Both the position numbers and the translations under genes were made by a program. A DNA stretch of 64,000 nt, taken from contig JAZOUB010000041.1 of NCBI GenBank assembly GCA_045657945.1, forward strand, positions 43,987 through 107,986. The letters run 5' to 3'. The notes under the pieces were generated by a model. The model searched no databases and was not told where the DNA came from. It was given only the letters and a program-made list of their open reading frames with translations. Shown here piece by piece: positions 1 to 57,425 of this stretch. Within the stretch, counting starts at the first letter, position 1, and every line of letters starts with the position of its first letter. This DNA is from Bacteroidaceae bacterium (GTDB taxonomy: Bacteria; Bacteroidota; Bacteroidia; Bacteroidales; Bacteroidaceae).

Positions 1-55
1 TAAAACAGACGGTTTCTGTCATTTCACCAGGAACCATTTAAAAGAAGACACAACT

Positions 56-1513
56 ATGATAACATTCCTCATTTGCCTTGCGGCACTTGTAACCGCATAT
101 TTTACATATGGCAAATATCTTGAGAAGAAGTGCGAGATAGACCCGGCCAATCCCGTGCCGTCCAAGACAATGTACGACGGTGTCGATTACATCCCCATGC
201 CACGCTGGAAAGTCTTCCTGATCCAGTTGCTCAACATCGCAGGCCTTGGCCCCATCTTCGGCGCGTTGCTTGGTGCAGCTTATGGCCCGGTGGCATTCCT
301 GTGGATAACGCTCGGCGGCATATTCATGGGCGCGATGCACGATTTTATTGCCGGTGTAATATCCTTGAAGAACAAAGGCGTGAGCCTTCCCGAAATAATC
401 GGCAAATATCTTGGAGGCGGAACAAAGGCTTTCATGCGAGTCTTCTCTGTGCTGCTTATGGTACTTGTTGGTGCTGTGTTCATGTCGCAGCCGGCAGGGC
501 TCATAGCATCGAATGTGTCAATACCCTCGCTTGAGGTGGTCGCCTTTGGTGATACCACTTGGGAACTATTCATTGTGCTTGCCGTGATACTTGTCTATTA
601 TATCCTTGCAACCTTGTTGCCAATAGACAAGATTATTGGCCGTTTCTATCCTCTGTTCGGCGTGGCACTGCTTGTAATGGCATTGAGCATACTCTTTATT
701 CTCTTGACTCAGAGTGATACATATTCAATACCTGAGCTCACATCGTTGGACAACCAGATTGCTAATCCACAGAAATTCCCTATTGTGCCAATGCTCTTCA
801 CGACCATAGCCTGTGGCGCCATATCGGGTTTCCATGCAACACAGTCGCCAATGATGGCCCGTTGCATGACCAATGAGAAGCAGAGCCGCAGCATCTTCTA
901 CGGTGCAATGATTGCCGAGAGCATTGTCGCGCTCATTTGGGCCGCCATCGGTATGGCATTCTGGGGTGGAGTGAAGGGACTTAATGCTGCCATCGCTACA
1001 TATAAAGGCAGTGCAGCCGGAATGGTTGATGAGATAACATCTACAACCCTTGGCCCGGTTGTCGCGGCATTTGTACTGGTTGGTGTCGTCGGTTGCGCAA
1101 TTACATCGGGCGACACAGCATTCCGCTGTGCAAGGCTCATTGTTTCCGATATGTTCGGCATTTCACAAAAGAGCCTCAAGAAGAGAGTGCTTGTATCCCT
1201 GCCTCTTTTTGCGGTAGCGCTTTTCATTATCTTTGCCCTGCCGTTCCAGACAATATGGAGTTACTTCGCATGGTGCAACCAGACATTGGCGGTGCTTACA
1301 CTATGGTGCATAACGGTCTATCTGTTCCGTAATAAAAAGCCGGTGGCGATAGGTATGTTGCCGGCATTGATTATGACCTATGTCTGCTCGTCATACATCT
1401 TCATCTCCCCAATGATGTGCGGCATGGAGAACCGCGCGTTGGCTTATATCCTTGGTGGTGTGCTGACGCTCATTATCGCTGTGGCAGTGCATTTCAAGGC
1501 AAGGAAAGGATAA
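56..1513 (+). CDS. cstA: Carbon starvation protein A family transporter (485 aa)
   Basis: Complete ATG ORF encoding a polytopic membrane protein. The N-terminus (MITFLICLAALVTAYFTYGKYLEKK) and overall composition look CstA-like. The family call is by recognition only. Confidence 0.75.
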   Translation: MITFLICLAALVTAYFTYGKYLEKKCEIDPANPVPSKTMYDGVDYIPMPRWKVFLIQLLNIAGLGPIFGALLGAAYGPVAFLWITLGGIFMGAMHDFIAGVISLKNKGVSLPEIIGKYLGGGTKAFMRVFSVLLMVLVGAVFMSQPAGLIASNVSIPSLEVVAFGDTTWELFIVLAVILVYYILATLLPIDKIIGRFYPLFGVALLVMALSILFILLTQSDTYSIPELTSLDNQIANPQKFPIVPMLFTTIACGAISGFHATQSPMMARCMTNEKQSRSIFYGAMIAESIVALIWAAIGMAFWGGVKGLNAAIATYKGSAAGMVDEITSTTLGPVVAAFVLVGVVGCAITSGDTAFRCARLIVSDMFGISQKSLKKRVLVSLPLFAVALFIIFALPFQTIWSYFAWCNQTLAVLTLWCITVYLFRNKKPVAIGMLPALIMTYVCSSYIFISPMMCGMENRALAYILGGVLTLIIAVAVHFKARKG

Positions 1514-1534
1514 TTCCTTCCTTTTAGATAAAAG

Positions 1535-1572
1535 AACTGCGGCATAGAGTTTGAAACTCTATGCCGCAGTTT
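1535..1572. terminator. Bidirectional hairpin between convergent cstA and the L,D-transpeptidase gene
   Basis: AACTGCGGCATAGAG-TTTGAA-ACTCTATGCCGCAGTT is a near-perfect ~15-bp stem lying between two convergent stop codons. Confidence 0.6.
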
Positions 1573-1587
1573 ATGTTGCAAAAACAA

Positions 1588-2058
1588 TTATTCGTCTTTC
1601 TCTATCGTTACCGGCATGCCAATGTAACAATACTTGTACAGTGCCTTGATGTCCTCGTTCCTCATTCTTATACATCCTTCGCTGCTGCGGGTGCCAATGC
1701 TCTCGGGGAAGATGGTACCGTGGATGCCAATGTCATTGAACCCCGGGACATTGAGCCTGAAGAATAATGGGCCGTAGGCTCCAAGGCGCATGCCCTGTCC
1801 GTCGCCAAAATCGTGCTTCCACGATGTGGCATCGTACATTTTTCTAATCTTGAAATCACCCTCGGGGGTCTTCTTGTCGCCAATCATGGTCTTGTCCCCT
1901 AAGTTCTCGCCACATGCGATTGGACGCTGGAAAATTGTATCGCTCTGTTCATTGAGAACATATAGCATCAATGCTTTTTTGGATACGACAATGCGGTTGC
2001 CGCATAGTGCGAGCAACGGCATTGTTGCGAGTATTGTTATTGCAAATAGTTTCTTCAT
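1588..2058 (-). CDS. L,D-transpeptidase (YkuD domain) lipoprotein
   Basis: Catalytic motif GIHGT...SSEGCIRM. Lipoprotein-type signal (MKKLFAITILATMPLLALCG). Confidence 0.8.
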   Translation of the reverse strand: MKKLFAITILATMPLLALCGNRIVVSKKALMLYVLNEQSDTIFQRPIACGENLGDKTMIGDKKTPEGDFKIRKMYDATSWKHDFGDGQGMRLGAYGPLFFRLNVPGFNDIGIHGTIFPESIGTRSSEGCIRMRNEDIKALYKYCYIGMPVTIEKDE

Positions 2059-2067
2059 AGTTCTTTT

Positions 2068-5000
2068 TTATCTTGTAAGTGAGAATTTCATGCTCACACC
2101 AAAGTCTATCGTGGTTGTGGGGTATGAACTTGTTGATATAAGCGGTATTGTCTTCTGTCCGTCAAAATAGAGGCTGAATGTCAACATCTTGCTGTATGCG
2201 TAGTCGGCAGTCATTGAGTAGTTGAATGACTTGTTTCCGCTTGTTGCCTGTGTTGTACCCTTGTCTATGCTGCGGCAGATTGATGACTGGTTCTTGAACG
2301 AGAAATCCGCGCGGATGTTGATGTCGTTTCCGCTGTTCTTCTGCTTGCTCTTGCTTGCCTTGTTGCCACCACCGAACAGTTTTACGTTCAGAATCTTGTA
2401 GCCCAGGTTGAATGCAATCTCCTGGTTCTGTGTCTCAACCATCTGTATTGCGGTAAGGCTCAGGTTAATCATTCGTGACTTGATGAACTTTGCGCCTATT
2501 GTAAGGTTATTGTTGGTTGTTACATCAACACCAATGAGTGGCGAGAAACTCTCATTTATTGATACTGCACCAATGTTGTAGCGGCTGCTTGGTATTGGCA
2601 GGCCTGTTGTTGTGTTGTTCACAAAACCTATGCCGCGGCTGTACTCCATGTATGTAGCGTAAGTGCTGTATGCGCCCACGGCATATACACTCTTATAGCC
2701 ATGCTCAATGTTCACGCTCTTGAAATATTTTTCAAAGAACGGCAGTTTTGACAATCCCGAGTACTTGATTTTCCAGTTCGGGAGTATGCTGAGCATGCTT
2801 GGGAAAATATCGTTTCCGCCAATGCCGGTATATGCGTCAAGGAATGCCGGTATCATGACATCGGCCGAGTATTTATCTACACCTCCGTTTGCAGGGTCAT
2901 ATTTCTTTCCTGCAAGGCTGCTCGATACCGGGTATTCGCTACCCATATATTTTCCTTCAAGTCCTGCACGGCGGTTCTCAAGGTTACCAACGAACTTGTC
3001 ATACACATCGGACTGGTAGTTGTTGCTTGCACTTCCACCGCCGAACGATGTGCCAATAGTGATTGTGGTCATGTTGAATCCGCCCGATTCATTGGTTGGC
3101 ATACCGTCGTACATGAACTGTATGCTCTTGCTCTGGTTGCGTGTCCAGCTCGCATTCAGGTCAATCTTGAAGTCCCTGAATGGTTCAAGAGTCATGCGTG
3201 CCTGCAGATCCTCTGCTGCTGTCGATGTCGCCATTGAGGCAATGCTGTCACTGCGCAGCAACCAGCTCTGTCTTTGTGCCTTTGCGAGGTAGCTGTCATC
3301 GATGAGGCCGAAAGCAAAGTCAAGTCCAGGAGCATAGAACCCGTCAACCCTGTTCTGGCCGAACACATCTCCGGCACTCGGCAGGAAGCCCGGCAGGTTC
3401 ATTGCGTATGCGTTGGTGTAGTTCACCGATGCGTTGCGCACCATCATAAGCATTCGTATCGGGTACTGCATTGCCTTTGCAAAGTTGCTGCGCTCGGTAT
3501 TCTTCGGCTTGGCAGTAATGGTTACCTTGATGCCGAGGGTGTCCTTGTTCTTGATAAGAATCTTGTTCTCGTCAAGAACCCTGTATTTGAGTTTGTATGT
3601 CTCGCCATTTTTTGTGCGTGCCAGCACCTCAATTTTCTTGTTCTTCAGGTTGTGTGTGATTGTCGTTGTGGTGTCGCTTTTCAGTTTTACCTCTTTTGTA
3701 AACGCCTTGGGTTTCTCAACCTTGGGTTTGGCACTCTTTTTGGATTTCTGGTTCTTTTTGTTGCTTGCAAAGCGCTTGTTGGTCTCCTCAAGATATGGCA
3801 CAAGATTATACAGCTTCTCAAAGTTCATGCTTGCCTTCAAGGTGATGTTGCGTTTGTTGGCAATGTTGTTGCCGACATTAACTCCAGCAATGCTGTTGCC
3901 TCTCTGCCAATTGTATGTAGCTGCGTATGAACCGTCTGCTGTCAGCCACTCGAAGATAGGCAGTTTGTTCAGCGGCAGGGTATATGACGCATTGAAACTC
4001 TGCTGGTAGGCCAACGGGTTACCAAAGCTCTGGAGGCTGTGTTTTACAGAGTCCTTCCAGGCGGCATATTCATTAGGGTATCTCTCCTTGTTCACCGGCA
4101 CGAAAGGCTCTTCAACCTCGGCATTGGTGCCGGTGTTCAGGCTCATTCTCAGATTAGTCGTTGGATCCCACTTTATAGCCATTGAGCGGTTCCAATAGAA
4201 CTGCTGCGAGAAGGTGAGCGGAATCTCGTTGTTATCCTGCATTGCCTGCAGGTCGCGACGCTGTAGTTCGTGGTAGGTGCGTGTCATATCGGTGTTCAGA
4301 GCCAGCGACTGTGGCAACGGGTTCACTCCCCATTCCTTCACCATCTTGAGCCACTTCGACTTGCTCTTGAGCTTGCCAAATGGCTTTATGGTTTTTATCG
4401 GGCTGGAGTAGTTGTAACTCAAAGAGGCCTTCCAGTTGACCCTGTTCTCCCAACTTATAGTACTTCCGGTGTTGTCGGTTGCCGAGTGTGAGAAACTGAA
4501 ACTTAGGTTCGATGGGTCGTATGGCATCGGAGTCTTGCTCGAGATGTTTATCTTGGCGTTGCTGATGCTGAAATTGCGCATGACAGAACGCACCTCGGCC
4601 ATGTTCCTAAGTGAGTCGCGGCCGATGTCATCATACGAATCAAGAACATCGTCAAGCTCCAGGTCTGTATCGAACGGGCTGTAGAGTGGTGATGTTATCT
4701 CCTCGGTGAACGAATAGTATGTAGGTACTGTTACCTTGAATGAGCGTGGCAGGAAACGGCCGAAATCGACAGTTCCCGTCAGTGAGTAACGGTAGTAGTC
4801 ATCGGTGCGACGTGCCGCCAGTTTCTCCTCAAGTCCACCGAAGCCGGCAGTCTCAACCTTTCCCTGTGCTGCAAATGAGCCCAGGTCGCTGAGCTTGATG
4901 TTAAGGTTACCCTGCGCAGCCCAGCCACTCTTGTTGTTGAAACCTATGAGACGCATCTCGTTGACCCAGATGATTGCCGACTTGCTGCTTGAACTGTTGT

Positions 5001-19613: not shown

Positions 19614-19668
19614 AGTAGTGATATTTTCTTTTATCTGCAAGGACAGTTTCCTGTCCTTGCTGTGTTAT

Positions 19669-22600
19669 TTATTTTACGAATATCTTTTTGCCATTGACAA
19701 TGTAGAAGCCAGGTTCGGTAATCTCGTTGAGCTTGCGGCCCTGGAGGTCATAGATTGTATCCTCAACCTCTCTCTCAATCTCCTCAATCTCGGTAGTTCC
19801 GTCATCGAATACAAAGCGGAAACCTGTACCCTGCTGCAACAGCTGTGCAAAGTTACCCTCAACAGGCAAGTATGCCTTGTGACTGTTGTTGGTGAATGTC
19901 GCTGTTGCTCCACCTGTTATGTATGAGTTGTTAGAGAGTGGATACATACCAACTCCATTACTTTTTTTAGTAAGGATGTAAGCATCCTTGTTTACATAAC
20001 TCTTTGCAACTGTTCCCTCAAGAATGTTTCCAACCGCTTCGGCTCTTGCCGCGTCTGTATTCTCAGTGATGATGAAATCGTATATCTTCGCCTCGTCACT
20101 CCTTAGGATTACACCTGTGTTTGCAGGGATAATACCGTTCTGCAACATTGTCATTGTAACCCATGAATCGGCTGTAATATTCTTCTCTTTGAGAACATAT
20201 GCTCTAACACCCTCGGGGATTTCAACTGCAACAGGCGCGTAGAATGTAGCGTGCAATGCCGAACCAATGGTTACAGGAAGTGACTCAACCTCCTCAAGAA
20301 CAAAGTTGTGGTTTGTTGCATGGTTATCGGGGTTGCCACTACAGTGGTCAACATAGCGTGTTGTGCCATCTACTGCGTGCAAGTAGCTTGGTGCAGCAAT
20401 GGTTGTTGTCTCTCCGCTGGTTGTTATTGTAACAGTGCCGCTTGTTCCAACAGCCTGCAGACCGCGTGTTCCGCCATCCTCTTTTATGTATGTACCCTTG
20501 TCGTATGAGAGCAACTTGTTGTCGGCATAGTAGAAGATAGATGCGGCGCCAGTCTCTTTTGTCATAAGCAATGCGTTAGCCTTATTGGTTACACCGCTTG
20601 CCTCGCTCTGGATGTAGTACCTGTTGGCAGGAGTTTCTGGAGTTTCACCGCTGCCTTCACCTTCGTCACCTTCACTATTGCCTGTTTCTATCATGGTCAA
20701 AGCTGTTACATATATATATCGGCCTATAATTCCAGATAGTTTGAATGAAGTTTCCCCTTCTATAAATGTGATTGTTTGTACACTCGTACCTCCATTCAGT
20801 GAAACATTTTCTGAATTGTAAGAAACGGTCATGTCATATGTTCTGTAGCCGTTCTTATAACTCATCTCTGTTAGGGTGTAACCTTCGGGAACAGTAATTG
20901 TATATTCAACAGGTGTTGTAACTCCGTCAATGAGGTGCAATTGGAAACCATTATTGTATTTCATTGATGCAATTTCAGTTCCATTAGCATCTCTTGCAAT
21001 AATATTAACTCCGTTATCACTAGTCCATTGCGAATAAGTGGTCTTATCTCCCGTTTGTCCACCGAATGCTCCAGTTGTCAAATCTATTGTCACCACATCT
21101 CCAGCCGCTCTTGCAGCGCCTGCGCTGGCTGCAGCTGCGAAACCGTCATATCCAATGCGGTAGTAAACACCGGCTGTGGCATTCTCAACAGGGAGGAAGT
21201 TTGCAACATACTCGGCATCCTCCATATTCTCCACATTTGCAATGCCGGGGATAGTGTATGGGTTCTCGCTGCTGACAACATCTGTACCCTTTGTCCAGTT
21301 TACAAAGTAATAACCGGTATTTGCGGTTGCTGTGATGGTTGCCTCCATATTATGGCCCACCTTAATGGTTGTTCCTGATGAAGTGTCTGATTCTGCAGTT
21401 ACTGTACCATAGCTGTCATCATTTGCACGAACGGTGAGGTTGTATGATGCAGGCTCAAAGGTGGCTGTGTAAGTTACATCCTTCTCAATGGTGATGACAA
21501 GATTTTGCTCATTGCCCACAATGTTGTCATTCTCATCTTTCCAAATTGTTTCGTAGCCATAGCTTAACCAAGTGTTTATCATAACCTCGGTTCCTTCTTT
21601 CACAACGGCTCTGTTACTTGCATCATAGCCCAATGATGTTCCATCGGGGAGTGTGATTTTAGTGACATATCCAATTCTATTGCTTTTGGGTTCACCTATT
21701 ACAACACAACCACGGAAGAAGCGTGCCTGGTATGTTGCGGCCTCTGTTGCCTGAACAGTTATTGCAAGCTCTTTGCTCACAAGTACATCGTTCTTGTACC
21801 AACCGTCGAACAGGTAGGCCTTCTGGTCGTAGTCGGATGATGCAACAAGTTCAACATCGGCACCTACAACGAAATCGGCATCAGTTGCCCACGCCTGTCC
21901 AATGTTGTTGATGATAGCCTTTACATTACCATCTACAGCGTTAGTTACAGTTGTGCCGTCGGTCGATGCAACTGTGATGTGTATTGCAACTGTGCCTGTT
22001 GGAACCTCATTGAAACGTGCAGTGTAGTTGATGTGGCTTGTGACGGTGAATGTATAACTTGCCTCAGCGCTTATTAAATTCTCTCCATCGTACCAACCTG
22101 CAAAACTGTAGCCAGTACTTGGTGTGGCTGTGAGTGTCACCTCGCTGCCATGTTCAACATTTGTTGCGCTTGCGGTTGCGCTACCGCCCTCGCCGGCTGT
22201 TACATTGATGTTGTATATGTTGATTGCAAAGTTCACATTAATGTTTGTCACCCAATTTTTTGATCCACTTGTGCTTGTGGTGTATTCAGCATTTTCGCTA
22301 AGTACAGTACTGGTAGAATCGGACCAGTTTACAAAGTGGTAACCTACGGCAGGTGTAGCTACAAGAGGAAGTTGATATCCAATAGGAGCTTTTTTCTTTG
22401 TAACATTCTCCTCGCCATTGATGCTTGTTGTTCCGCCTTCAGTTGGTTTAATGTTCAATTTGATAGCCGGCCATCTCCAGGCTTCTTCCAATATGGCAGC
22501 GTATGCATTGATAGTGTTGTATGTCAGGCCACCCCATTTTTCGAAATCACCCAAGTTCTCAACTATTGGAACCAGCGCGTCTGTAATGATACATTTGCCT

Positions 22601-25600
22601 TCTCCTACACCTGCATAGTAATAGTACATTGCATATGTATCATTGAGCATGACTTCATAGTAGGGTGATTCAACAAACTCAAACCAAGCACCCTGGTGAC
22701 CATTGCTGTTGTAGTGTGTAGCGTAGTTGTAACCGGTTGCCGATGTGGAACAAAGATAACCCTTTTCTTCGCCCACGTTTGCTGTAAGAGAATACTGTGC
22801 ATCGGTATAATAATCATTTCCTGCAGGTTTCTTCTCGATTGTGAACACTGTTGCATCTATGGCATTCTCTACATATACCACATTCTGAGCATCACCATTG
22901 GCAACACTTGTTACCTGAATGTATTTACCTGTAAGCTCGTTCTTGAAGATGAACTCAAAGCTGTTGTTTACGTTGTAGATAGCCCAAGCAATCTTTGGAT
23001 TACCTCCCATGGTGTTGTATGTAGGGTGGTCGCCATAAGCGTAAGAGCCTGTAACCTTTGGTACATAAGTGTCATCAGCACTTGAAGCCGACAGATATAC
23101 CGGGTAATCGTTGTTTTTTGTATTTGATGGCCAGTAGATATTATGCCATATCTCATTCTGAGCATTACTTACTTTGAATGGTAATATGACATTGTTGGTA
23201 TATGTATAAGAATTGCCATTAATCTGGAGCTTACCATTGTCAATAACTTCATCTTCACTTTTTTCACCTAATGCTATATAAGGATACAGCTCAACCAACT
23301 TGGCAGCAACAGTTTCTTTTGTTATACCGTTGGTGAAGCCGTCCAACCGAATGCGATATTCATTGGTTTGGCCTGCATTGGTACCGATAATCTCAGTCAA
23401 GACAACATCTACAACTATCTGCTCAAAGTTCGCCTCAAGGCTCAATGCCTCGCTCACAGTTACGGTGTATGGGTTTTGGTCACTTACAACATTGCTGTTT
23501 CTTGCTTCGGCTGTTCTTGCAGCTGCGCTTGCCTGTGCAGCAGGTCTTGTCCAGTTGACAAAACGGTAACCGGGGTTGGCTGTTGCAAGAATTGAAACCG
23601 TTGCGTTAGCAGGTACAAACTTGTTGTTAACAGTCTCGGCAGCACTGCCATTTACTGTAATTGACACACTACCGGGAACAGTTTCTGTTTCCTCATCATT
23701 TACAGTCAACACAACCTCGCGGTAGCTCTCCTTAACGTTCTGCACAGTCTCGGTGTGTGTGTTAAGGGTGTTGAGAGGCGTATTCGCAATATTTTCTATA
23801 ATAGCCTTGATTGCATTGATGTCGTTATTGTCGGTGTAATTGCCATCACCGGCACCAAACTTGGCAACATTTTCTGTCAAAGCATCAATAATAGCCTGAT
23901 AGTCGGGAGCCTCAACGAACTCAATCCAAGCACCTTGGTGACCATATCCGTTATTACTATTGTTGAAATAGTGTGTTGCGTAATTGTAGCCTGTTGCCGA
24001 TGTTGAGCAGAGATAACCTGTTGTCTCGCCAACCTTTGCAGCAAGTGCATACTGTGCTGGAGTATAATAATCATTTCCTGCAGGCTTGTTGAAAATTGTG
24101 AACGCTGTTGCCTCCTCAATATTTTCAACATAAACTACATTTTGAGCACCATCATCGGCAACATTTGTTACCTGAATATACTTTTGGGTAACCTTGTTCT
24201 TGAAGATGAACTCAAAACCGTTGTTTACATTGTAGATAGCCCAACTGATTTTTTCATTACCATCCAATGTATTATATGTCGGGTGGTTACCATAAGCGTA
24301 TGAGTCTGTTACCTTTGGTACATATGTGTCATCTTTACTTGAAGCCGACAGATATACCGGGTAATCGTTCTCTCTAGTGTTTGCCGGCCAGTATATGTTG
24401 TGCCATACAGTTGTGTTGGCATTACTTACCTTGAATGGCAATGTCACAGTGTTGGTGTATGTGTTGTCTGCAATAGCACCGTTCTCGCCCAATGTAATGA
24501 ATGGGTATGTTGTTGTCAGGTAAGTTGCTACAGCAGCTGCATCGTTGGGAACGTAGTCGAGTGTCTCTCGGTAGATGTTGCCCTCTGTATCGGTAAGCTC
24601 AATGTTGAACTCAACAGGTACATATTCAACATCTGCATTCGGGTTAAGGAAATTGTTGTTTGTAATCTCCTCAATTGTCAAAGGAACATATACCATTGAG
24701 TAACCATAGGTGTTGTCGTCGTTATGACAAGGAGCCTCCTCAAAGAAGAATGCTATCTCGCCATTCTCCTGCAGTGCCATTGCGCTGTATGCGCTCTGCA
24801 CTGTGCTCACCTGCAAGCCCTTTGTCCAACCGCCTGCAATTGAAGACGGAGTCTGTGTCTCGTTGCCAATCTCCTTGTACCAGATGGTTACATCCTTGCG
24901 GTCCCAAGTGCTTGAACCACCCTGTGGCTGTGACTGCAACAGAATTTTTGTAGGCTTGCCGTTGGTTTGCTTTGCGTCAAGGCAGATTATTTCACCGTTT
25001 GTGCCGTTTTTGCCTTCATTGCTGCAACCGCTGACAGCAGTGCCCCAAGTGCCTTCGCCGGCAGCCTTGTCGTTGCCGTATGTGAAGACATTGAACACAC
25101 GGCTACCACCGCTTGCGTGGCGTGAACTGAGCAGAACCTGTCCGTTTGGCAGAATCTCAACCTTTGGCTCGTCAGCTTCGGCTATATGTGTTTTGCTGCC
25201 ACCGAGGATATTCCAGGTTGCACCCCAGTCATCCGAGAACAGAACATAGTTGTTTGTGCTGCGTGCGCTGTTCTTTAAAAGGATTGCACCATAGACACGT
25301 GCCTTGCCTGTGCCGTTGAAGTCGGGGTCAACAGCCAATTTACCGCTGCCGAAGAATGTTGCGTATGCCTCGTCGAAGAGACCAAAGATATTGCTTGTAA
25401 CCTCCTCTTTTGTCCAAGATTGACCATTGTTGTTGCTGTAGATACGGTAGGTCTTATTTTTGTTTGTTGCATTGGCATTGGGGTAGAATACATTGCCGGC
25501 AACAGCCATAACAAGGATGTCCTGTCCGTTGGCTACAATAGCTGCATCGCCGTAACCGAATGTCGATGTACCCTCGGCTATAGTCTGCTTTGCAGTCCAA

Positions 25601-28600
25601 GTTGCACCGTTGTCGTCGCTTGTACGCATAACAAGGTCAACTCTGTTTGTTCCTGTGCCGTGGTTGTCGCGGCCAATATCATCGTGGCTGTGACGGTAGT
25701 CGCTCACTGCAACAAGGCGGTTTGTGCCGGTCTTTGCAATGGCAGGGATGCGGTATGAGAATTCATCATCATCGTAGAAGAGTGTCACATCATTGGTTGC
25801 TGTGAACTTTGCAACAAGCGGAGTAGTCTCGTTGATTGCTGCAACATTGTCAGCTGTGAGTGTCGGGTTTGTTCCAAGTGATGTCGCGCCAATGTAGAAA
25901 CCGTTGAACTCAAAGCCACGATACTTGCGTGTGAATGCAAGTGTTGTACCCTCGGCGAGTGGCATTGTAAGCTCGCTTGCTGTTTGGTGAGCTGGAGTGA
26001 GCTTCATTGCTGTTCCGCCAATGGTTATTGTACCCAAGTGAGTATTTGGATTATCGTTTCTCCAGTTCTCAACCTCGGCCTGGAACATTGCCGGCACAAA
26101 CTCCTCTTCAATGTATGTGATTTCAAGAGCTGTGATGAAGATACCATTTCCTGCAGTTCCACCTACACCAATGTTAATGGTATTGGTTTCAAGTCCTGTT
26201 GCAGAAATAGTTTTTTCTGTAGTACCACTTATTGCAATAGTACCGGTATTGTTGTTTGTAGCGGTATATGTAACATCACCAGAGAATGAATCACCTTCTC
26301 CCCTGATAGTCATACTATATCCTGCAATTTTATATGGTTCAGGGATAGAAATTGTAAAATTAGTTGCTTTAGCCAAATATGGAGTTTTATTACCATTAAC
26401 CTTGGTAGTCCAACCAAGATTGTTGTTAGTAATTCCATCCACTTTGATTGTTACAGTTGGAGTTGTGTTTACAACTGCTTTGTAACCCCAACCGCTGTTT
26501 ATTGTATTACCGGCATAGTTTGTATATGTAACATCTGCAAATGTAAGATTCAATGTCTTCTCGTTAGAAGGGATAACCTCCTCGAGAACCCAGGTAGAAG
26601 CTGCGTTTGAAGCTGCATCACAATATACATATCCGTTCTCTGCCTTGAAGTAATCGTCGCGCTCAACACCGTTATTCATGTTCGTGTTGTCCCACTTGAT
26701 GAGGTACTCAAGTTCGTTACCTGTTGTCTCAAAGGTGAGTACTGTGGCATCGTTTGCGCTGGTGGTGTTTGCATTGGCATTCCAAGCGTGGCACTTGATG
26801 TAGTTGCCGCTGTTTGCTTTCAGTTTATAGCCATCGCCGCTCTGCTCAAAGAGGAATATCTGTGTGTCGCTGCTTTCGTTCTTGGCAACAACAGTTACAC
26901 CACTTGTTGAACCTGTATTGTTGCTTGTATTTGCAATGTTCATATAGTTGGTGGTGTTCTTTACCTTCAAACGGAAGAACTTGCCTGCAAGAGATGTTGT
27001 TGGTTCTGTCGGCGTATTTGACTCAAAATTTGCAACATAGTTTGAAGCCTGTGCCACGCTTACATTGCAAGTTGCTTCGGTGCTAACCACATTTCCGCCC
27101 AATGTCCAGTTTACAAAGTTGTAACCGGTGTTGGCGGTAGCATAAAGTGTTATCTGAGTTCCGTTTTCAACATCGCCCTGTGTCTTTTGGCTACCAGTGC
27201 CAACTGCGAACTTTGCTGTACCACCCGCTGCAGGGTTTGCAGTCGTTGTAACGGCGTAGGTTGTTGGGGTTGGGTCAGGCTCCGGCTCCGGCTCTGGGTC
27301 GGGAGTTGGGGTAGAGGCTCCGCCTTCTGACTGGATGGTTACTGTAACTCCATCTTCCAAAATTGCCAAGCCGGCACGACCGGCATAAGTTGAACCCAAT
27401 ACAAACGAAGTGCTTTGTGAATTGATGTCTGATGCAGAAAACACAACGCCTGCAGCAGCATTATTTACATTTGTTGTATTTCCTCCAATTGTAACATCAA
27501 TTGTGTAAGAACTACTGGGGCTTTTACCCTTAAAACTGTAACTTTTTATTATATAACCTGCAGGTGCAGTCAATGTATAAGTTATATCCGAAACAAGTGT
27601 CTCAGAGTTTCCTACAGGCGCTTTTGCGAAGAATGTATTGACGGTTGTTGAAAGGGCATAAGCCGGCTCAGAGCCTTTCGAACAGTTCAATACAATACCG
27701 TCGCTTGTTGTCCAAGTGCTGCAATAAGATCCATTAGCTCCACTTATCTCTACACTCGAAATGTTAAATGTGCAATCTTTCTCAACCAGCACATTTGCCT
27801 CATCGTCAAAGTTTGCAACATAGTCATTGTCGGATGCACCTACTTTTACCTGTAGTGTGTTCTTTGTGCCGACTATGACACCGTTCTTTGTCCAATTTGC
27901 AAGTGCATAACCGTCGGCAGGGTGTGCGGTGAGGGTTGCGGTGAAGTTCTCATTAATTTCTGCGCTTGCAGTTGTTCCGGCAGTTCCACCATTGATTGAA
28001 ACAGTACCCATATTTGAAGGTGTAGCTGTTGCAGTAACGGTGAATTTTTCTGTTTTTGGCGCAAGGTTAAAGAGTGCGTAATGTTCTGCACCATCTATCC
28101 AAGAATAATTGTCGCCTTGAGAAGGAGTGATAGCGTCAAGTTTGAACCAACCATTACCCGAGCCGTTCCATCCGAAGTTGAAATGAAAGTAATTATTGGC
28201 TGTGTAACCATCAAGGACAAACATATGGCGTGTATCACCTGTACCACTATTATCTGACGCGTATGGTATTGGGCAACCGTTGTCAATGCTCTCCTTGATT
28301 TTTTCAATCCACTGCTCCATAGTAAAGTTTGCCTGGTATGAGGCATTGATGAGCTGGTAATTGAAATAGTCATTCAGAACCTTGCTGTCCGATCCTTCGT
28401 TTACAGTTGTTGCACCGGTGCCTATACTTGAAGGGAAACAGGCGTGCAGTATGTGTGAGAAGAACTTTGAAACCTCGTCAATCTGCTCCTGTGTCCAGTC
28501 ACTGTTGTATGTAAGAGGCATCTTGCTGAAATCATATACTCTGTCGGTTATCTCTACATATGTAGGTGCCTGACAGTTGTACAGGGTCTTGGCTGTTCCT

Positions 28601-33956: not shown

Positions 33957-35717
33957 TTACTTTACAAGTGTTTTTTTGCCATTTACAATGTAGATACCGG
34001 GAGCAGTGATAGCCTCTACACGGCGGCCTGTGAGGTCGTAAACAGTTTTCACATTTCCGTTTTCCGTTTTCACCTCTTCAACGCCTGTTGTACCCTCGCC
34101 AAAGCGGAAGCTGAAGTTTGCTGCACCCTGTGCTGCTGCAGGAACTGCGCTTACAGGCAAGTATGCCTTGTTGGCATTGTTAAGGAAAACTTTTACTGAA
34201 CCAGATGCTTGACTTAGTGCTATAGTGGTCATCTGTGCCTTGTAGAGGCCGGTTTCGCCTTCAACAACACCAAGTATGTAAGCCTGACCAATGATGTTGG
34301 TGTTGATTACTGTACCCTTGAAAAGGTTGCCGGTTACGGCTGCTGCATTTGTCTCTGATACACTGAAAGTGTACTCACCCTCTGCGCCCTCAAGGATAAC
34401 GGCTGTGTTTGCAGGGATTACATTCTCAATCTGTGTCAATGTTACTTTCTCACCATTGAAACTTCCTTCGGTAATGTAGTATGCCTTTACATTCTCGGGG
34501 ATTTCAACCTCAGCAGGTGCATAGAATGTAGCATAGCCGACACCGCTGATATTAGCCTTGAATGAAGCAACTTCTGCAACCTCATATACATAGTGGATAG
34601 TCCAACCGCCGGTTCCGGTGTTATAAACAGGAGTGCCGTTTGAACCATTCTGGACGTTAATCCAGTTGCTGCCTTTTACAAAGCGTACAAGGTTGGCGTC
34701 GTTGCTGCCTGTGATGTAAAGGTTTGAGTCGCCGTCGCCGTTGAATGTACCGTCAACGCCGGGAGCTGTTGCTGTAAATACTGCAGCATTGTCAATTGTT
34801 CCAAAATCCTTTGGTGATGATGTCTGCATGTATGTGCCGTCCAATTTCTTCAAATAGTATGAACCGGCTTGACCTGCGTTCACAGGCTCCCAAACAAAAA
34901 TTGCATCATTTGTGAACTCCTCCTCGCTGTAAGGTACTGCGCCAGTGTTGCCCACAAACCAACGGTTATTTGTGTAAGAGAGGTTTTTGATTGCAATGTA
35001 TGTGGGCTCGGTTTTTGCCATCAAATCACTTGCTGTAACCTGTGTGAGGTATGAAACTTCTGCGGGTTCTTCAGGGAGCTCGGGAGTTGCAACCTCAGTG
35101 TCAATAGTCACCTTGAACAATCCATAGAAGCAACCATAGGCTGTGTAGTTGTTGACAATGTTGATTTTGAGTGTTACGGTTCCGTCAGCAGCCTTGATAG
35201 GGGTACTTGGAACAAAATTTACTGTTACACTTTCACCTCCATTAGAGTTCACCTTGATTGCGACCTCGTTATGTTGAGCTACTGTGGCGTCATCCTGCTT
35301 TAGAATGAAATCAATATGCTGTGCGTTTGCATTGTCGCCCTGAAATGCACCACCGCCATTCAAAGCAACGCTCTTGAGTGTTATGGCCGTGAATTCGTAG
35401 TTGTCGGGAACACCTGCAATGGTAAGTGTTATTACGCCCGCCGCATCACCGGTCATGTCCTTTGTGTTCTTGTCTGGGCAAAGGATGCTTGAATTTGGAA
35501 ATGTTGCGCTATTTGCTCCAAATGCTTTCCAGTTGTAGTTGCAAGCGATAGTTGAGGTGATGCCTGTTGCATCAACATCGCCAGTGCCTGTCACTGTAAC
35601 ATTTGCGTCAGTGCCTGCCGCACTGTTGTTTCTTGAGAATGTCAAGTCAATTGCATTCTGCGCCATTGTTGCTCCACAGAAGAGCGCAAGCGCCATAGAT
35701 AGTAAAATTTTCTTCAT
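33957..35717 (-). CDS. T9SS cargo protein, adhesin/lectin-like (586 aa)
   Basis: Signal peptide MKKILLSMALALFCGATMAQ. CTD is VYDLTGRRVEAITAPGIYIVNGKKTLVK. The roughly 200 aa before the CTD are homologous to the same region of the giant protein. Confidence 0.8.
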   Translation of the reverse strand: MKKILLSMALALFCGATMAQNAIDLTFSRNNSAAGTDANVTVTGTGDVDATGITSTIACNYNWKAFGANSATFPNSSILCPDKNTKDMTGDAAGVITLTIAGVPDNYEFTAITLKSVALNGGGAFQGDNANAQHIDFILKQDDATVAQHNEVAIKVNSNGGESVTVNFVPSTPIKAADGTVTLKINIVNNYTAYGCFYGLFKVTIDTEVATPELPEEPAEVSYLTQVTASDLMAKTEPTYIAIKNLSYTNNRWFVGNTGAVPYSEEEFTNDAIFVWEPVNAGQAGSYYLKKLDGTYMQTSSPKDFGTIDNAAVFTATAPGVDGTFNGDGDSNLYITGSNDANLVRFVKGSNWINVQNGSNGTPVYNTGTGGWTIHYVYEVAEVASFKANISGVGYATFYAPAEVEIPENVKAYYITEGSFNGEKVTLTQIENVIPANTAVILEGAEGEYTFSVSETNAAAVTGNLFKGTVINTNIIGQAYILGVVEGETGLYKAQMTTIALSQASGSVKVFLNNANKAYLPVSAVPAAAQGAANFSFRFGEGTTGVEEVKTENGNVKTVYDLTGRRVEAITAPGIYIVNGKKTLVK

Positions 35718-41595: not shown

Positions 41596-44500
41596 TTACT
41601 TGATAAACATCTTCTTGCCGTCGATGATGTAGATTCCCTTTGTTGGATTCTCTACCTTGCGGCCCTGCAAATCGTAGATAGCTTTTACCTTTCCGTTTTC
41701 ACCTTTCACCTCATCAAGCACCTCCTCAATGCCTGTCTCGCCATTGGTGTAGGTGTAGGTGATGTCAAGGTTCTTGCTCACATACGCAAGCTCGTCATAT
41801 ACGGCGTTGCTCTCCTTGAGTGTGTAACCCTCAAAGATTGGGGTGAGCATGGTGAACTGTTCACCGCCCTTTACATAACGTGTGCCGCTTGCCAGTTCGT
41901 TGCCCTCTTCATCGATACACTTGTATGCTACAGCAAAGTAGGGGTGTGGGTTGTAGGTGTAGATGATGAATGGGTGGCCGTCGTCCCAGCCTGTGAAGGT
42001 GTTGTTGGCGTTGCCGTTCCAGTAGTAGTTGTTGCTTGTGCCCTTTACGCTCCATGTGGCGCCGTCGCTGTTGAGGGTAAACTTGAAACGCTCGGGGGTG
42101 CTGCCACCGGTTACCAATGAACCGCGCAACAGCTGTGGAATATATACGCCATAGTTGTTTACAACGGTGAAGATGTTGTTCGCGCCCTCAAGGTTCCAGA
42201 TGAATCCCGGGTTTGCATCTGTCACTCCGTTGGTTGTTGTGATGCCGTCGCCAACGTTTGTGACGCTCAGGAATCCGCTGCGTGCAGTTTCGTTCTTTGC
42301 GTTATAAATAAGGTATGATGCACCATCCTGGAGCTCGGTAACAACCTCGCCGATTGATGCCGCACCCATGATACCCTCGGTTGTGAATACTGCTTCAATC
42401 ACGGTGTCCTCTGTCGGGGTGAAGGTTACTTCGCCGTCCCATACAAGGTTTACGAAATCAAAGAACTCTACCTGTGGTTCTGCAATGGTGTATGCCTCGC
42501 CAATGGTGCATGGAGTGTCAATCTCCTTGATGATGTTGCCGTCGGCTGTGATGCAACGGTAGGTCACATTGTAGGCTGTGCGCTTGTAGGTTACCTTTAT
42601 GTTCTTGTTCTCAGCGACATTGTCGAACACGGGAGCATCGGCTGTGCCGGTTGCCTCGTATGCCACAATGCCGTGGTTCTCAATTGCTGGAGCAACGGCT
42701 GTGTATGGCTTGCCGTCGGCTGCTGCCTGGTAGGCGGTCTGCATCAGGTTTCCATCCTCGTTGTAGCACTCGAATGTTACAAGGAATGCCTTCTCATAGA
42801 TCCAACCTGTTCCCTGTGGGTAGATACCGCCTTTGTTCAGGGTGTTTGGGTTGGTGGTTGCATGCTCCGAAACAGGATGCAATGCGTCGTTGCCGCTCTT
42901 GATGCTGAAGTCGCCGCTTCTTGTGTTGTATGCATTGGTGAGCACTGCACCGCTTGCGCCCAGTTTCACAGGTGCATTGGCGTTGCTGATGTAACGGCCT
43001 GTCGCTACGTTGCGTAGCTTGAATGTCTGGCCGGCATCGGTTACTGTGGCATCTGTGATTTCCCATACATCTGCGCCATACTGTAACTGTGCTGCGGTTA
43101 CATTTTCGTTGTTGTTGTCATACATTGTCCAACCCTTGAAACGCTCGGTGTTGTTCACAATGCGGTATGTTGTGCCCTCTACAGGGTATTCAAAGTCAAT
43201 GCTTGGTTCGTCGTCCACCAACGGGCGGAACTCCCATATGCCGCCGTTGCCGTCGGCCGGGTCACTCCACAGGTTTATTGAGTGGTTCTGTCCGGGGCCT
43301 GCATAGTTGAGACACATGTTGCCGTTCGATACCTTTTGGCTGCGTATGCTGTAGGTGTAGTTATTGCCTTTCTGTGCATAGGCCTTGTCACCGAGGATAA
43401 AATCATAGTGGCGGTTGTTCTCGTCATAGTCCCAACGGCCGGTGTTGTTCTCGGCTGTAGGTGTTCCCTTTACCGAACCGTTTGGTTTTGCCTTGTTCAC
43501 CAAAGCCCAACGCTGTGGGTTGGCTGGGTCCTGCATGAAAGCCCATAACTGCCAGTCGTAGCCTTCGTTGTTCTCATCTTCGATTACCTCGCTGTTCCAC
43601 AGGCGTCCGGCTGGTGCAGTGCCTGTCTTGTCGGTGATGTTCATACCTTCGCGCAGAAGCTGGATGCAACGTCCGGCACGTGTGTCGGTAGCTGTGGTAA
43701 CAATGCGGTACCATGTCTTCTCCTCATCGGTAGAGGCCTTTGGCATCACCTTGTCGTCGCCATTCTTGTTGTCGAGAATATAGTGGCGTCCATAGTCGTA
43801 GTTATTGTAGTTGAGCAAGAGAGTATCCTTTGTGATGCGCTCCTGGAAGTCGCTGAAGTTCTTCTTTGATGCGGGTGTCCAGCCTGTCTCGGCAATAGCG
43901 GTGAGGCGTGGCAGGGCAAGGTATTCGAGCAGGTCGTTGTCCTGTACGTGCTCGGTCCAGAATGTACCCTGTACACCAACGTAGTACTTGTGCAGGTTTG
44001 ATGGCACGCTTGATGGTATCGGCGCATAGTCATATACCACTTTCACGTTGTCTGTTCCATAACCAGCTACTGGTGGCTCGTCGGCATCGGTGCTCTGGCG
44101 GCGGTTGATGTAGTAGGGGACTTGTGTGGTGATGATTGACTTCATGCCATTCTGTGCCGCTTTCAAAGCACATGGCTGTGCGTTGCCAATCTCCCAGCAC
44201 ATCATTGTGCCGCCTGTACCCAAGATTTTCTCCTCGTCGGTACCGCCGGCGGTGAGGCTCTCGTTCCACATGATTACGGTGCGCTTCTTGTCGCCCTCCT
44301 TTGAGGTTACGTAGTCCGATACCTGGCGCACGAAGTGCGACTGCAACTGACGGTAGTTGGTGAATCCCATCTTCTGCATCATTGCCTGGCACTCGGCATT
44401 GCCCTGCCAAGCGTTTGTAGGTGTCTCGTCACCACCGATGTGAATCTGGCTGTAGGGGAATACCTCAATTACCTCGTCGAGCACATCCTTTGCAAACTGC

Positions 44501-45450
44501 AATACCAATGGGCTTGCAACGTTGAGCACATCGCTGAAGATACCGCCGCTTATCTGTACGCTGTGGCCGGCATTGGGGTTACAGCTGAGTTCGGGGTATG
44601 CTGCGTTCACGGCGCATGAGTGGCCGGGGAACTCAATCTCGGGTACCACCTCGATGTGACGCTCTGCTGCGTATGCTACAATCTCGCGGCACTGCTCCTG
44701 TGTGTAGAAGTATGGACCGTAAGGCTCATTGGTATAGTAACCGCCATATACGCGGTCGGTGCTCCATGAGTTGCTGCGTGTTGCACCGACAGTTGTCAGG
44801 CGTGGGTATTTCTTTACCTCGAAACGCCAGCCCTGGTCGTCGGTGAGGTGCCAGTGGAAGCGGTTGAGCTTGTAATATGACATCACATCAATAATGCGCT
44901 TGATCTCATCCAAATCAAAGAAGTGACGGCTCACATCGAGCATGAAACCGCGGTACTCAAAGCGCGGAGCATCGACAATGCTCACGATGGGGAGCGGGTA
45001 TTCGGTCACGGTCTCGTCCTTCACACCGGCCATGACATTGGCTGGGAGCATCTTCTTGATACTCTGGAATGCATAGTAGAAACCGTTTGAACAGGTAGCA
45101 CTGATTGCAATGCCGTCGGTTGTTATGTCAAGGGTGTAACCCTCGCAACCCAAGTTCTCGCTACCATTGTAGAGAGACATGGTTATGAGCGCGTCGGCAG
45201 CCTCGGCCTTTACATCGACAGTGTAGCCTGTAACGCCTGTAAAGTGATTTGCAAACTTTGTAGCCTCGTTGGAGAGACTGTCGGGCAACTCACCTGTTGC
45301 AATTGTGAAATTCTGTGGCAATACGAGCGTGCCGTTGCCAACAGTCATTTTCATTGGAACCGGTGTAAGGTTTACTCTGCTGTCGGCAAACATCGTCGCC
45401 GGGATAGCCAGGAGAACCAACAGTAAGAAACGTGTAAACAGGTTTTTCAT
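41596..45450 (-). CDS. GH20 beta-N-acetylhexosaminidase with C-terminal lectin-like modules and T9SS CTD (1284 aa)
   Basis: GH20 motifs RGFMLDVSRHFF, HWHLTDDQGWR, IHIGGDE. CTD is IYDLQGRKVENPTKGIYIIDGKKMFIK. Confidence 0.9.
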   Translation of the reverse strand: MKNLFTRFLLLVLLAIPATMFADSRVNLTPVPMKMTVGNGTLVLPQNFTIATGELPDSLSNEATKFANHFTGVTGYTVDVKAEAADALITMSLYNGSENLGCEGYTLDITTDGIAISATCSNGFYYAFQSIKKMLPANVMAGVKDETVTEYPLPIVSIVDAPRFEYRGFMLDVSRHFFDLDEIKRIIDVMSYYKLNRFHWHLTDDQGWRFEVKKYPRLTTVGATRSNSWSTDRVYGGYYTNEPYGPYFYTQEQCREIVAYAAERHIEVVPEIEFPGHSCAVNAAYPELSCNPNAGHSVQISGGIFSDVLNVASPLVLQFAKDVLDEVIEVFPYSQIHIGGDETPTNAWQGNAECQAMMQKMGFTNYRQLQSHFVRQVSDYVTSKEGDKKRTVIMWNESLTAGGTDEEKILGTGGTMMCWEIGNAQPCALKAAQNGMKSIITTQVPYYINRRQSTDADEPPVAGYGTDNVKVVYDYAPIPSSVPSNLHKYYVGVQGTFWTEHVQDNDLLEYLALPRLTAIAETGWTPASKKNFSDFQERITKDTLLLNYNNYDYGRHYILDNKNGDDKVMPKASTDEEKTWYRIVTTATDTRAGRCIQLLREGMNITDKTGTAPAGRLWNSEVIEDENNEGYDWQLWAFMQDPANPQRWALVNKAKPNGSVKGTPTAENNTGRWDYDENNRHYDFILGDKAYAQKGNNYTYSIRSQKVSNGNMCLNYAGPGQNHSINLWSDPADGNGGIWEFRPLVDDEPSIDFEYPVEGTTYRIVNNTERFKGWTMYDNNNENVTAAQLQYGADVWEITDATVTDAGQTFKLRNVATGRYISNANAPVKLGASGAVLTNAYNTRSGDFSIKSGNDALHPVSEHATTNPNTLNKGGIYPQGTGWIYEKAFLVTFECYNEDGNLMQTAYQAAADGKPYTAVAPAIENHGIVAYEATGTADAPVFDNVAENKNIKVTYKRTAYNVTYRCITADGNIIKEIDTPCTIGEAYTIAEPQVEFFDFVNLVWDGEVTFTPTEDTVIEAVFTTEGIMGAASIGEVVTELQDGASYLIYNAKNETARSGFLSVTNVGDGITTTNGVTDANPGFIWNLEGANNIFTVVNNYGVYIPQLLRGSLVTGGSTPERFKFTLNSDGATWSVKGTSNNYYWNGNANNTFTGWDDGHPFIIYTYNPHPYFAVAYKCIDEEGNELASGTRYVKGGEQFTMLTPIFEGYTLKESNAVYDELAYVSKNLDITYTYTNGETGIEEVLDEVKGENGKVKAIYDLQGRKVENPTKGIYIIDGKKMFIK

Positions 45451-57295: not shown

Positions 57296-57425
57296 ATTGT
57301 TAGGTTTTGTTTTTGCAGAATTTACCAAAATAGTTATAATATTGTGCCAAAAGTAGTGCTTTTTAATCAAATAAACAATAATAGGTGTTGTGATATATTA
57401 TATAAGGTAACAAATGTATAAAAAA

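Follow-up and report, generated by a model that had tools for sequence, protein, structure and literature searches.

In this work, a stretch of 64,000 nucleotides (the window) of contig JAZOUB010000041.1, from a Bacteroidaceae bacterium (assembly GCA_045657945.1), was found to encode a giant protein of 3060 residues that carries a C10 cysteine protease and a sialidase of glycoside hydrolase family 33 (GH33) on one chain, both with intact catalytic residues. The fusion is conserved among homologues, and the tail of the protein is homologous to the C-terminal domains (CTDs) of type IX secretion system (T9SS) cargo. We hypothesize that the protein is a Sec-exported, T9SS-secreted, very large multi-enzyme that most likely serves to forage on sialylated host glycoproteins, e.g., mucins, in the herbivore hindgut, and we regard this explanation as probable. 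Both domains come from known families and multi-catalytic T9SS cargo is already known; it is the C10-GH33 pairing that is undescribed. No description of a C10-GH33 fusion was found in full-text literature searches, so the remark of the first-pass annotation, made from the DNA letters of this stretch, that it knew of no described fusion of this kind has held up. The sequences themselves are public and are labelled only 'C10 family peptidase'.

The gene starts with ATG and continues through 3060 codons with no interruption, and its stop-to-stop frame opens just two codons before the ATG. Frame reading of the minus strand therefore agrees with the single uninterrupted open reading frame (ORF) that the first-pass annotation had proposed. 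The motifs quoted there, AGCVPTAYAIVMRYH, RHMFVLDGY, PDPEPEPEPDPTP (the proposed linker) and YRIP, were all found in the translation at the places given for them. A signal peptide had been claimed as well, and inspection of the N-terminus bears this out: the predicted peptide is MKNFLRVTVLAICAIFMVANVSA, followed by QD, and A23 and Q24 at the predicted cleavage site are invariant in 15 full-length homologues. The coordinates of all features are collected in Table 1.

The protease was matched by the Pfam model PF01640 over its full length (aa 43-236, model positions 1-194 of 194, E 1e-39), with 137.1 bits against a cutoff of 26. Furthermore, the C10 region matched the solved structures of interpain A (3BBA, E 5e-21) and streptopain (E about 1e-16). 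The catalytic Cys67 (nt 28651-28653) lies in AGCVPTAYAIVMRYH at aa 65-79, with the motif GCVPTA, and His209 (nt 28225-28227) lies in RHMFVLDGY at aa 208-216. Both residues, together with Trp228 and Trp235, are kept in 119 of 119 family members, and the complete C10 catalytic domain with its Cys and His, as first annotated, is thus confirmed. The domain shares the full-length C10 match, the Cys-His dyad and the conserved Trp with interpain A of Prevotella intermedia and with streptopain SpeB. However, the characterised C10 enzymes are zymogens with an N-terminal I69-type prodomain, whereas the giant protein and a stand-alone C10 paralogue of 323 aa in the window lack one. The search of the giant protein with PF13734, the model of the I69-type prodomain, gave no match, and the stretch from the signal-peptide cleavage site to the catalytic domain, about 12 residues, leaves no room for one. 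Roughly a third of the family retain the PF13734 prodomain according to the precomputed Pfam list. Small C10 genes also adjoin the giant homologues in three of the retrieved loci (L002, L008 and L081), and many of the retrieved Bacteroidales loci encode C10 peptidases that bear a T9SS CTD.

The best solved match of the sialidase module was PDB 10QF, the NanH of Treponema denticola (Td-NanH), with E 6e-61 over aa 936-1400, and the NCBIfam model NF052328, which represents the TDE0471-type neuraminidase, was matched over aa 942-1401 with E 1e-71. Other solved sialidases (8FEB and 8GN6) matched the GH33 region at E about 1e-23. Because the 10QF match already starts in the InlB-like N-domain of Td-NanH, the giant protein contains the NanH module with both of its domains (aa 925-1400). 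Td-NanH has been crystallised and enzymatically characterised; its catalytic residues are R140, D165, E338, R354, R423 and Y463, its N-domain is InlB-like and it has three Asp boxes (bioRxiv 10.64898/2026.02.05.703967). These six residues correspond, in the same order, to R1034 (nt 25750-25752), D1058 (25678-25680), E1228 (25168-25170), R1244 (25120-25122), R1318 (24898-24900) and Y1355 (24787-24789) of the giant protein, and in the 10QF alignment the counterparts of R159 and D205, which contact the ligand, are R1053 and D1102. The numbering of the PDB 10QF chain is offset by 12 from that of the Td-NanH paper. The GH33 set is therefore complete, with the Arg triad including the RIP motif, the Asp acid/base and the Tyr/Glu nucleophile pair. 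The six catalytic residues, and all eight sialidase residues checked, are kept in 81 of 81 GH33-bearing clusters. The first-pass annotation had described a full sialidase domain with YRIP and three Asp boxes. The domain, YRIP (aa 1033) and two canonical boxes (SDDNGATW at 1078 and SDDWGATW at 1206) stand, whereas the third box, SNNNGQSW at 1139, is degenerate. The end-to-end alignment with 10QF points to a six-bladed beta-propeller fold for the GH33 domain. Thus, the likeness to Td-NanH (TDE0471; PDB 10QF/10QG/10QH) would extend to the InlB-like N-domain, the six-bladed GH33 propeller and the presence of only three Asp boxes. On the other hand, Td-NanH is a stand-alone spirochaete protein of about 540 aa, whereas its counterpart here occupies residues 925-1400 of a 3060-aa Bacteroidales protein. 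Both catalytic domains are supported by independent searches (Pfam PF01640 for C10, and PDB 10QF and NF052328 for GH33), and judging from the full-model matches and the complete catalytic conservation, both enzymes look functional.

The whole-protein search gave 159 clusters (90% identity) at E<=1e-10, and the best 120 of the 159 were classified with hidden Markov models (HMMs) built from the family. The fixed order C10 - NanH_N - GH33 - trefoil module(s) - tag, where the tag is the short C-terminal segment discussed below, was found in 81 of these 120 clusters with both catalytic sets intact, and 37 of the 120 contain C10 without GH33. The homologues come from ENA, NCBI and Logan records (the NCBI label being 'C10 family peptidase [Bacteroidaceae bacterium]'), and 14 of them that were aligned over the full length are 58-78% identical to the giant protein. 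Mean identity to the giant protein was 87% for the NanH N-domain (minimum 80%), 72% for GH33 (minimum 67%), 59% for C10 (minimum 35%) and 26% for the third copy of module X, X3 (minimum 19%). No other part of the protein is conserved as uniformly as the sialidase module, with its mean identities of 72-87%. The recurrent order together with the fully conserved catalytic residues makes a mis-assembly or a decayed domain very unlikely. An assembly artefact, either a mis-join or a frameshift, was judged indirectly, from the same domain order in the 81 clusters of ENA, NCBI and Logan origin, and was considered very unlikely; that the fusion is unique to the source genome was rejected on the same recurrence.

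The protein could also be read as mainly a surface-layer protein or giant adhesin, in which the enzyme-like domains would be pseudo-enzymes that serve in binding. Most of the 3060 residues are indeed repeats, lectin-like or other beta-rich modules. Nevertheless, all catalytic residues are kept, in 119 of 119 cases for C10 and in 81 of 81 for GH33, and such full conservation is not expected of decayed active sites. The pseudo-enzyme explanation was therefore rejected, and we give it hardly any credence.

The two activities are also found side by side outside the fusion, in two distant Bacteroidales lineages. In an uncultured Bacteroides sp. (locus L015, 2038-7262, + strand) and in an uncultured Sangeribacter sp. 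of the Muribaculaceae (locus L037, 1181-4918, + strand), a C10 gene is followed directly by a GH33 gene on the same strand. Both of these C10 genes have the I69 prodomain, and that of L037 also has a canonical Por_Secre_tail CTD; the GH33 genes are 30% identical to the sialidase domain of the giant protein (E 8e-43 and 3e-29, respectively). That C10 and GH33 are neighbouring but separate genes in some genomes and fused in others is a classic sign of a functional link. Moreover, the search of 1.84 billion representative proteins with the sialidase module gave 507 representatives at E<=1e-30, in which the module takes many positions in proteins of about 420-3300 aa. Among the best 150 of the 507, the short tag is present in 121, and the partners recognised include C10, GH20 and a reprolysin-like metalloprotease. 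The architectures include GH20 + F5/8C + GH33 (P0130) and GH20 + F5/8C + ricin-B + GH33 + reprolysin (P0126), which were checked directly and both end in the short tag, as well as C10 + reprolysin-like + GH33 (P0032 and P0076). Judging by these architectures, the C10-GH33 protein is one member of a putative combinatorial set of multi-enzyme cargo and not a singleton.

The first-pass annotation had ended the protein in a T9SS CTD. What stands is the homology to the type A CTD and the presence of the SprA translocon gene in the window; the tail is, however, not a canonical CTD and matches none of the curated models. It follows the consensus T.gIEEV...iYDLxGRkV...GIYIvnGKKvxvK, takes up about 45 aa at the extreme C-terminus, and is common to seven proteins of the window, all encoded on the minus strand. 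As the curated CTD models are blind to the tail, homology was shown by profile-profile comparison instead. The canonical profile was made from the ORF C-termini of 79 retrieved loci, with the Pfam-verified PF18962 CTD of L037 as the seed, and was grown to 67 members; the tag profile was built from 27 tails. The hhalign comparison of the two aligned 54 columns, spanning the regions of motifs B, D and E, with a probability of 94.9% and E 4.3e-8. Compared with the canonical profile, the tag lacks 13 and 8 aa in two deletions, and its motif B is degenerate. The reversed alignment and 30 column-shuffled versions of the tag, used as controls, gave at most 2%, and with the canonical set restricted to 46 strong members the probability was still 93.3% (E 2.7e-7). 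The match of the tag profile to the RgpB CTD chains in the PDB was weak (E 0.3-0.5). From these profiles, we conclude that the tail represents a truncated type A CTD. Like the known type A CTDs (PF18962/TIGR04183, the RgpB CTD, PDB 5HFS), it stands at the extreme C-terminus of Sec-exported cargo and is related to them by profile homology. It differs from them in its length of about 45 aa against 72 aa in 5HFS; the canonical chains are longer, and the curated HMMs miss the tag. The canonical seven-strand Ig-like fold takes about 70-100 aa, and the AlphaFold2 (AF2) model of the C-terminal 323 aa of the giant protein has a predicted local distance difference test score (pLDDT) below 50 in the tag. 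The 323-aa C10 paralogue has 44 residues, the tag, after its catalytic domain, which are too few for a canonical seven-strand CTD.

The distribution of the tag is consistent with a sorting role. In the set of loci retrieved by the C10 search, no locus has both the tag and a canonical CTD, and the tag is restricted to twelve loci from metagenome-assembled genomes (MAGs) named 'Bacteroidaceae bacterium' and to the window, where it sits on equivalent cargo such as C10 peptidases. The tag also ends the crystallised bovine-rumen GH43 arabinanase ARN2 (PDB 4KCA, chain A 640-680, E 2e-7), and its presence on this enzyme too argues for a generic sorting signal and not for a function-specific domain. 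A further deposited protein, named 'Beta-helix domain', ends in it as well (PDB 7JVI, chain A 813-842, E 3e-3). The last 22 residues of HBP35, with motifs D and E, were reported to suffice for the secretion of GFP (T9SS review, PMC10202324), and motifs D and E are exactly those that the tag retains. No paper describing the short tag was found in the literature searches.

We hypothesize that the giant protein would be exported by Sec and then pass the outer membrane through the SprA translocon by means of its shortened type A CTD. We infer surface attachment as the next step, with the protein probably exposed on vesicles or the outer face of the cell. The stalk of InlB repeats and the lectin-like modules may position and hold both enzymes on the substrate, which would be a sialoglycoprotein. 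There, the Td-NanH-type sialidase would strip the terminal sialic acids that shield the glycoprotein backbone and the underlying glycans, and the C10 protease on the same chain would cut the polypeptide thus exposed, so that the two activities could be kinetically coupled.

The main rival to a foraging multi-enzyme is a polyprotein precursor, made as one chain for export and then cleaved, possibly by its own C10 protease, into independent or non-covalently complexed pieces, in which case the link between protease and sialidase would be only biosynthetic. Such processing is established for the gingipain/adhesin polyproteins, which are processed after export. In the giant protein, the sole anchor signal comes at the very end of the chain, some 3000 residues away from the protease, and the chain contains flexible linkers (aa 517-529 and 2725-2741) and conserved Ala/Arg-rich inserts (aa 1769-1785 and 2573-2585), all of which would suit a precursor. 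The same could be said of the domains that are also separate elsewhere, as in the tagged stand-alone C10 peptidase (61% identical) and in the adjacent C10 and GH33 genes of L015 and L037. However, no cleavage site is predictable from the sequence, and the fixed domain order in 81 clusters fits a functional single chain equally well. We consider a processed precursor unlikely, and retain the multi-enzyme that forages as one chain as the better explanation.

The genes around the giant gene point in the direction of host glycoproteins. Encoded in the window are a sulfatase, a GH20 hexosaminidase with MucBP and, side by side, two enhancin-like peptidases of the M60 type. With the C10 paralogue added, these are the enzymes expected for the breakdown of sialylated, sulfated host glycoproteins such as mucins. 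The M60 pair, the GH20-MucBP protein, the sulfatase and the giant protein form a secretome of the mucin-degradation type. All close relatives among the species-representative genomes are MAGs of an uncultured 'Bacteroidaceae bacterium', and their gut sites, where named, are in the ruminant hindgut only (L001-L010, L016 and L017), namely the colon of water buffalo, the cecum and rectum of yak, the cecum of goat, the cecum of roe deer, and the colon and rectum of sheep. The locus L011 is one short contig from a MAG labelled HGM04608.

A role in immune evasion was weighed against this background. Interpain A reportedly degrades complement C3. Td-NanH was shown to desialylate complement factors and to promote serum resistance (bioRxiv 10.64898/2026.02.05.703967). 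As the nearest characterised relatives of both domains thus target complement and act on host defence, it is conceivable that the protease degrades immunoglobulins or complement and that the sialidase desialylates them, which would protect the bacterium at the mucosa. On the other hand, the sources of the giant protein are MAGs of gut-lumen commensals from the ruminant hindgut, the neighbouring genes are typical of glycan and mucin degradation (M60, GH20, sulfatase), and the sialidase module is also fused to a GH20 hexosaminidase, which points to glycan breakdown. Immune evasion as the role of the protein is therefore quite improbable in our view, and the habitat and the neighbouring genes favour foraging over it.

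Several results weigh against a secreted foraging multi-enzyme. The C10 domain lacks the prodomain of the characterised C10 zymogens. The Pfam model BNR_2 scored 29.3 bits on the sialidase, just under its gathering score of 31.4, and the equivalog cutoff of NF052328 is far from reached, with 242 bits against 900, so that the sialidase is a homologue and not an equivalog, and the specificity of TDE0471 is not transferable to it. No genes for uptake or catabolism of sialic acid were seen within the 64-kb window, and the gene neighbourhood is only partly conserved among the homologues. The Pfam and NCBIfam models of T9SS CTDs gave no match at E<=10, either to the last 72, 99 or 319 residues of the giant protein or to the six other tagged tails. 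As the tail is missed by curated models and the AF2 prediction is unreliable there, we infer T9SS secretion from remote homology and from the distribution of the tag. A profile of the three copies of module X had no significant match in the PDB or in the Pfam scan. Modules X, T0, T3 and the C-terminal domain were left without an assignment after the Pfam, PDB-profile and Foldseek searches.

Much of the remaining chain consists of repeats. Lectin-like and InlB-B-repeat-like modules had been proposed for it. The InlB repeats were confirmed by PF18998 (Flg_new_2; six stretches, E 1e-40, 138 bits), and about eight copies were counted with the family HMM; the lectin-like label, when applied to module X, has no significant match in the PDB. 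The further InlB B-repeat copies lie at aa 530-610 and 1716-1795 and in a run at 2132-2553, and this run is a probable stalk or spacer. The duplication of a module of unknown function, also proposed in the first reading, was confirmed by self-comparison, and 'unknown' can now be refined to a predicted beta-trefoil core. Comparison of 200-aa segments detected the duplication, as the self-BLAST of the whole protein gave the identity match only; aa 1425-1768 align with 1830-2177, and the identity is 65% in the first 190 aa and 41% in the 177 aa that follow. In the AF2 model of aa 1405-1722 (pLDDT 85.5, predicted template modelling score 0.83), a small alpha/beta domain is followed by a beta-trefoil (~1474-1650) and a helical bundle. 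The top Foldseek matches of the module were beta-trefoil proteins, among them ricin-B-type lectins, Mitsuba, fungal agglutinins, FGF and CDT, at E 1e-4 to 1e-3, with a probability of about 1.0 and a target TM of 0.6-0.7. A profile search of the PDB with the duplicated module gave no sequence match, so the beta-trefoil is seen by structure prediction alone. The resemblance of the trefoil core to lectins makes the module a plausible carbohydrate-binding module, with the modelling assigning the fold only. The C-terminal 323 aa were modelled poorly (pLDDT 55 overall, with local values of 70-90 in aa 2856-3000), and a Foldseek search with this model gave nothing meaningful (best E 0.29). Module X copy 3, at 26% mean identity against 68-76% for the flanking modules, in homologues that are otherwise 58-78% identical, could be a specificity-determining or swapped binding module. 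The two Ala/Arg-rich inserts are RPAAQASAAARTAEARN (aa 1769-1785; 23497-23547, minus strand), which interrupts an InlB B-repeat, and AAASAGAARAAGD (aa 2573-2585; 21097-21135, minus strand). Several residues of both are invariant across homologues, and one possibility is that they are processing sites.

The tagged GEVED/Flg_new_2 protein of 681 aa is encoded directly upstream of the giant gene, and near-identical C-termini upstream of the giant homologues in L001 and L002 suggest that it is a conserved neighbour. The sequence TACATTTG, 48 nt before the ATG of the giant gene, fits TAnnTTTG, the Bacteroides -7 promoter consensus. GC-rich hairpins are present in both intergenic regions that border the giant gene (19637-19660; 29019-29040 and about 29120-29150). 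Together with the TAnnTTTG-type motif, they suggest that the giant gene is its own transcription unit. Elsewhere in the window, a protein of 875 aa with a transglutaminase-like core and a Big_1 domain is encoded on the plus strand (11981-14608).

Table 1. Position of the giant gene, the parts of its product and other genes discussed in the text (nucleotide positions in the window; residues of the giant protein).
Feature	Position (nt)	Strand	Residues (aa)	Basis or remark
Whole gene, 3060-aa multidomain secreted protein (predicted); tagged	19669..28851	-	1-3060	One ORF; 100%-coverage homologues at 58-78% identity
TACATTTG, TAnnTTTG-type match, 48 nt 5' of ATG	28899..28906	-		Consensus match only
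Sec signal peptide, predicted cleavage VSA/QD	28783..28851	-	1-23	Sequence inspection
Peptidase C10 catalytic domain	28066..28746	-	36-262	Pfam PF01640, full model; without I69-type prodomain before the domain
InlB B-repeat (Flg_new_2) copy 1	27802..28047	-	269-350	Pfam PF18998, family HMM
Module X copy 1, about 150 aa, beta-rich by sequence	27316..27798	-	352-512	X3 HMM E 4e-18
Pro/Glu/Thr-rich linker PDPEPEPEPDPTP	27265..27303	-	517-529	Sequence
Module T0	26572..27000	-	618-760	Fascin-like signal (beta-trefoil class), weak and under the cutoff (Pfam Fascin E 0.0013)
Module X copy 2	26104..26568	-	762-916	X3 HMM E 2.5e-5
InlB-like N-terminal domain of sialidase module	25777..26079	-	925-1025	Homologous to T. 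denticola NanH N-domain
GH33 exo-alpha-sialidase beta-propeller (predicted fold)	24652..25776	-	1026-1400	PDB 10QF, NCBIfam NF052328, residue mapping
Duplicated module copy 1	23686..24639	-	1405-1722	AF2 model, Foldseek
Duplicated module copy 2	22456..23418	-	1812-2132	Self-comparison; trefoil HMM E 6.5e-70
Run of about five InlB B-repeats	21193..22458	-	2132-2553	PF18998, family HMM
Module X copy 3, hypervariable	20680..21093	-	2587-2724	Family HMM, per-domain identities
Module T3	20284..20628	-	2742-2856	No Pfam match; low AF2 confidence
Conserved C-terminal beta-rich domain	19852..20286	-	2856-3000	Found in most of the family
Truncated T9SS type A CTD ('short tag'), TTEIEEIE...TIYDLQGRKLNEITEPGFYIVNGKKIFVK	19672..19809	-	3015-3060	hhalign
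SprA/Sov T9SS translocon, 2460 aa	2068-9450	-		PF14349 E 2e-213; about 10 kb from the giant gene
Stand-alone C10 peptidase, 323 aa; tagged	15203-16174	-		Shares 61% identity with residues 1-266 of the giant protein
GEVED/Flg_new_2 protein, 681 aa; tagged	29168-31213	-		
Sulfatase, immediately upstream	31218-32828	-		
586-aa protein; tagged	33957-35717	-		No Pfam match
GH20 hexosaminidase with MucBP; tagged	41596-45450	-		
M60 enhancin-like peptidase; tagged	54578-57370	-		
M60 enhancin-like peptidase with ricin-B-type domain; tagged	57521-61453	-		

Two further known systems come close to the giant protein. SiaA of Tenacibaculum maritimum is a T9SS-anchored protein with CE6, CBM40, two GH33 domains and a TIGR04183 CTD (PMC5561996). 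It is, like the giant protein, a large multi-catalytic sialidase with predicted T9SS surface display that would act directly on host glycoproteins (PMC5561996). In SiaA, however, the partner of the sialidase is a carbohydrate esterase and not a protease, the CTD is canonical, and the C10 protease of T. maritimum is separate. The cellulases of 'Ca. Paraporphyromonas polyenzymogenes' also belong to uncultured ruminant-gut Bacteroidales and are reported to have several catalytic modules per T9SS-linked polypeptide (PMC5831590). They reportedly act on plant cell wall polysaccharides in the rumen (PMC5831590), whereas protease, sialidase, hexosaminidase and metalloprotease modules are combined here, and the site is the hindgut.

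More speculatively, we propose that a lineage of uncultured herbivore-gut Bacteroidales may shuffle C10, reprolysin-like, GH20 and Td-NanH-type GH33 domains onto giant stalk-like 'mucinases', which would be exported by a naturally minimised T9SS signal of ~45 residues with little more than motifs D and E, and that the tethered sialidase and protease would act on the same mucin in a coupled, proximity-driven manner beyond the reach of separate enzymes; taken as a whole, this wider proposal is tentative and somewhat doubtful. In the usual description of sialylated mucin degradation, sialidases, other glycosidases and proteases are separate enzymes that work as a relay. The conserved fusion of a sialidase with a cysteine protease is strong genomic evidence for a functional coupling of both steps, to which the sister fusions with GH20 and metalloprotease add, and it offers a ready-made system for the study of proximity effects in glycoprotein breakdown. 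An intact GH33 domain is hidden in more than 80 public clusters whose sole label is 'C10 family peptidase', so surveys of peptidases and carbohydrate-active enzymes may miscount both activities. If the tag is functional, the T9SS cargo of a whole lineage would be invisible to the current CTD models, and the tag would lend natural support to the experimental result that secretion needs no more than motifs D and E. Of the leads given here, the combinatorial enzyme toolkit and the minimal CTD reach further.

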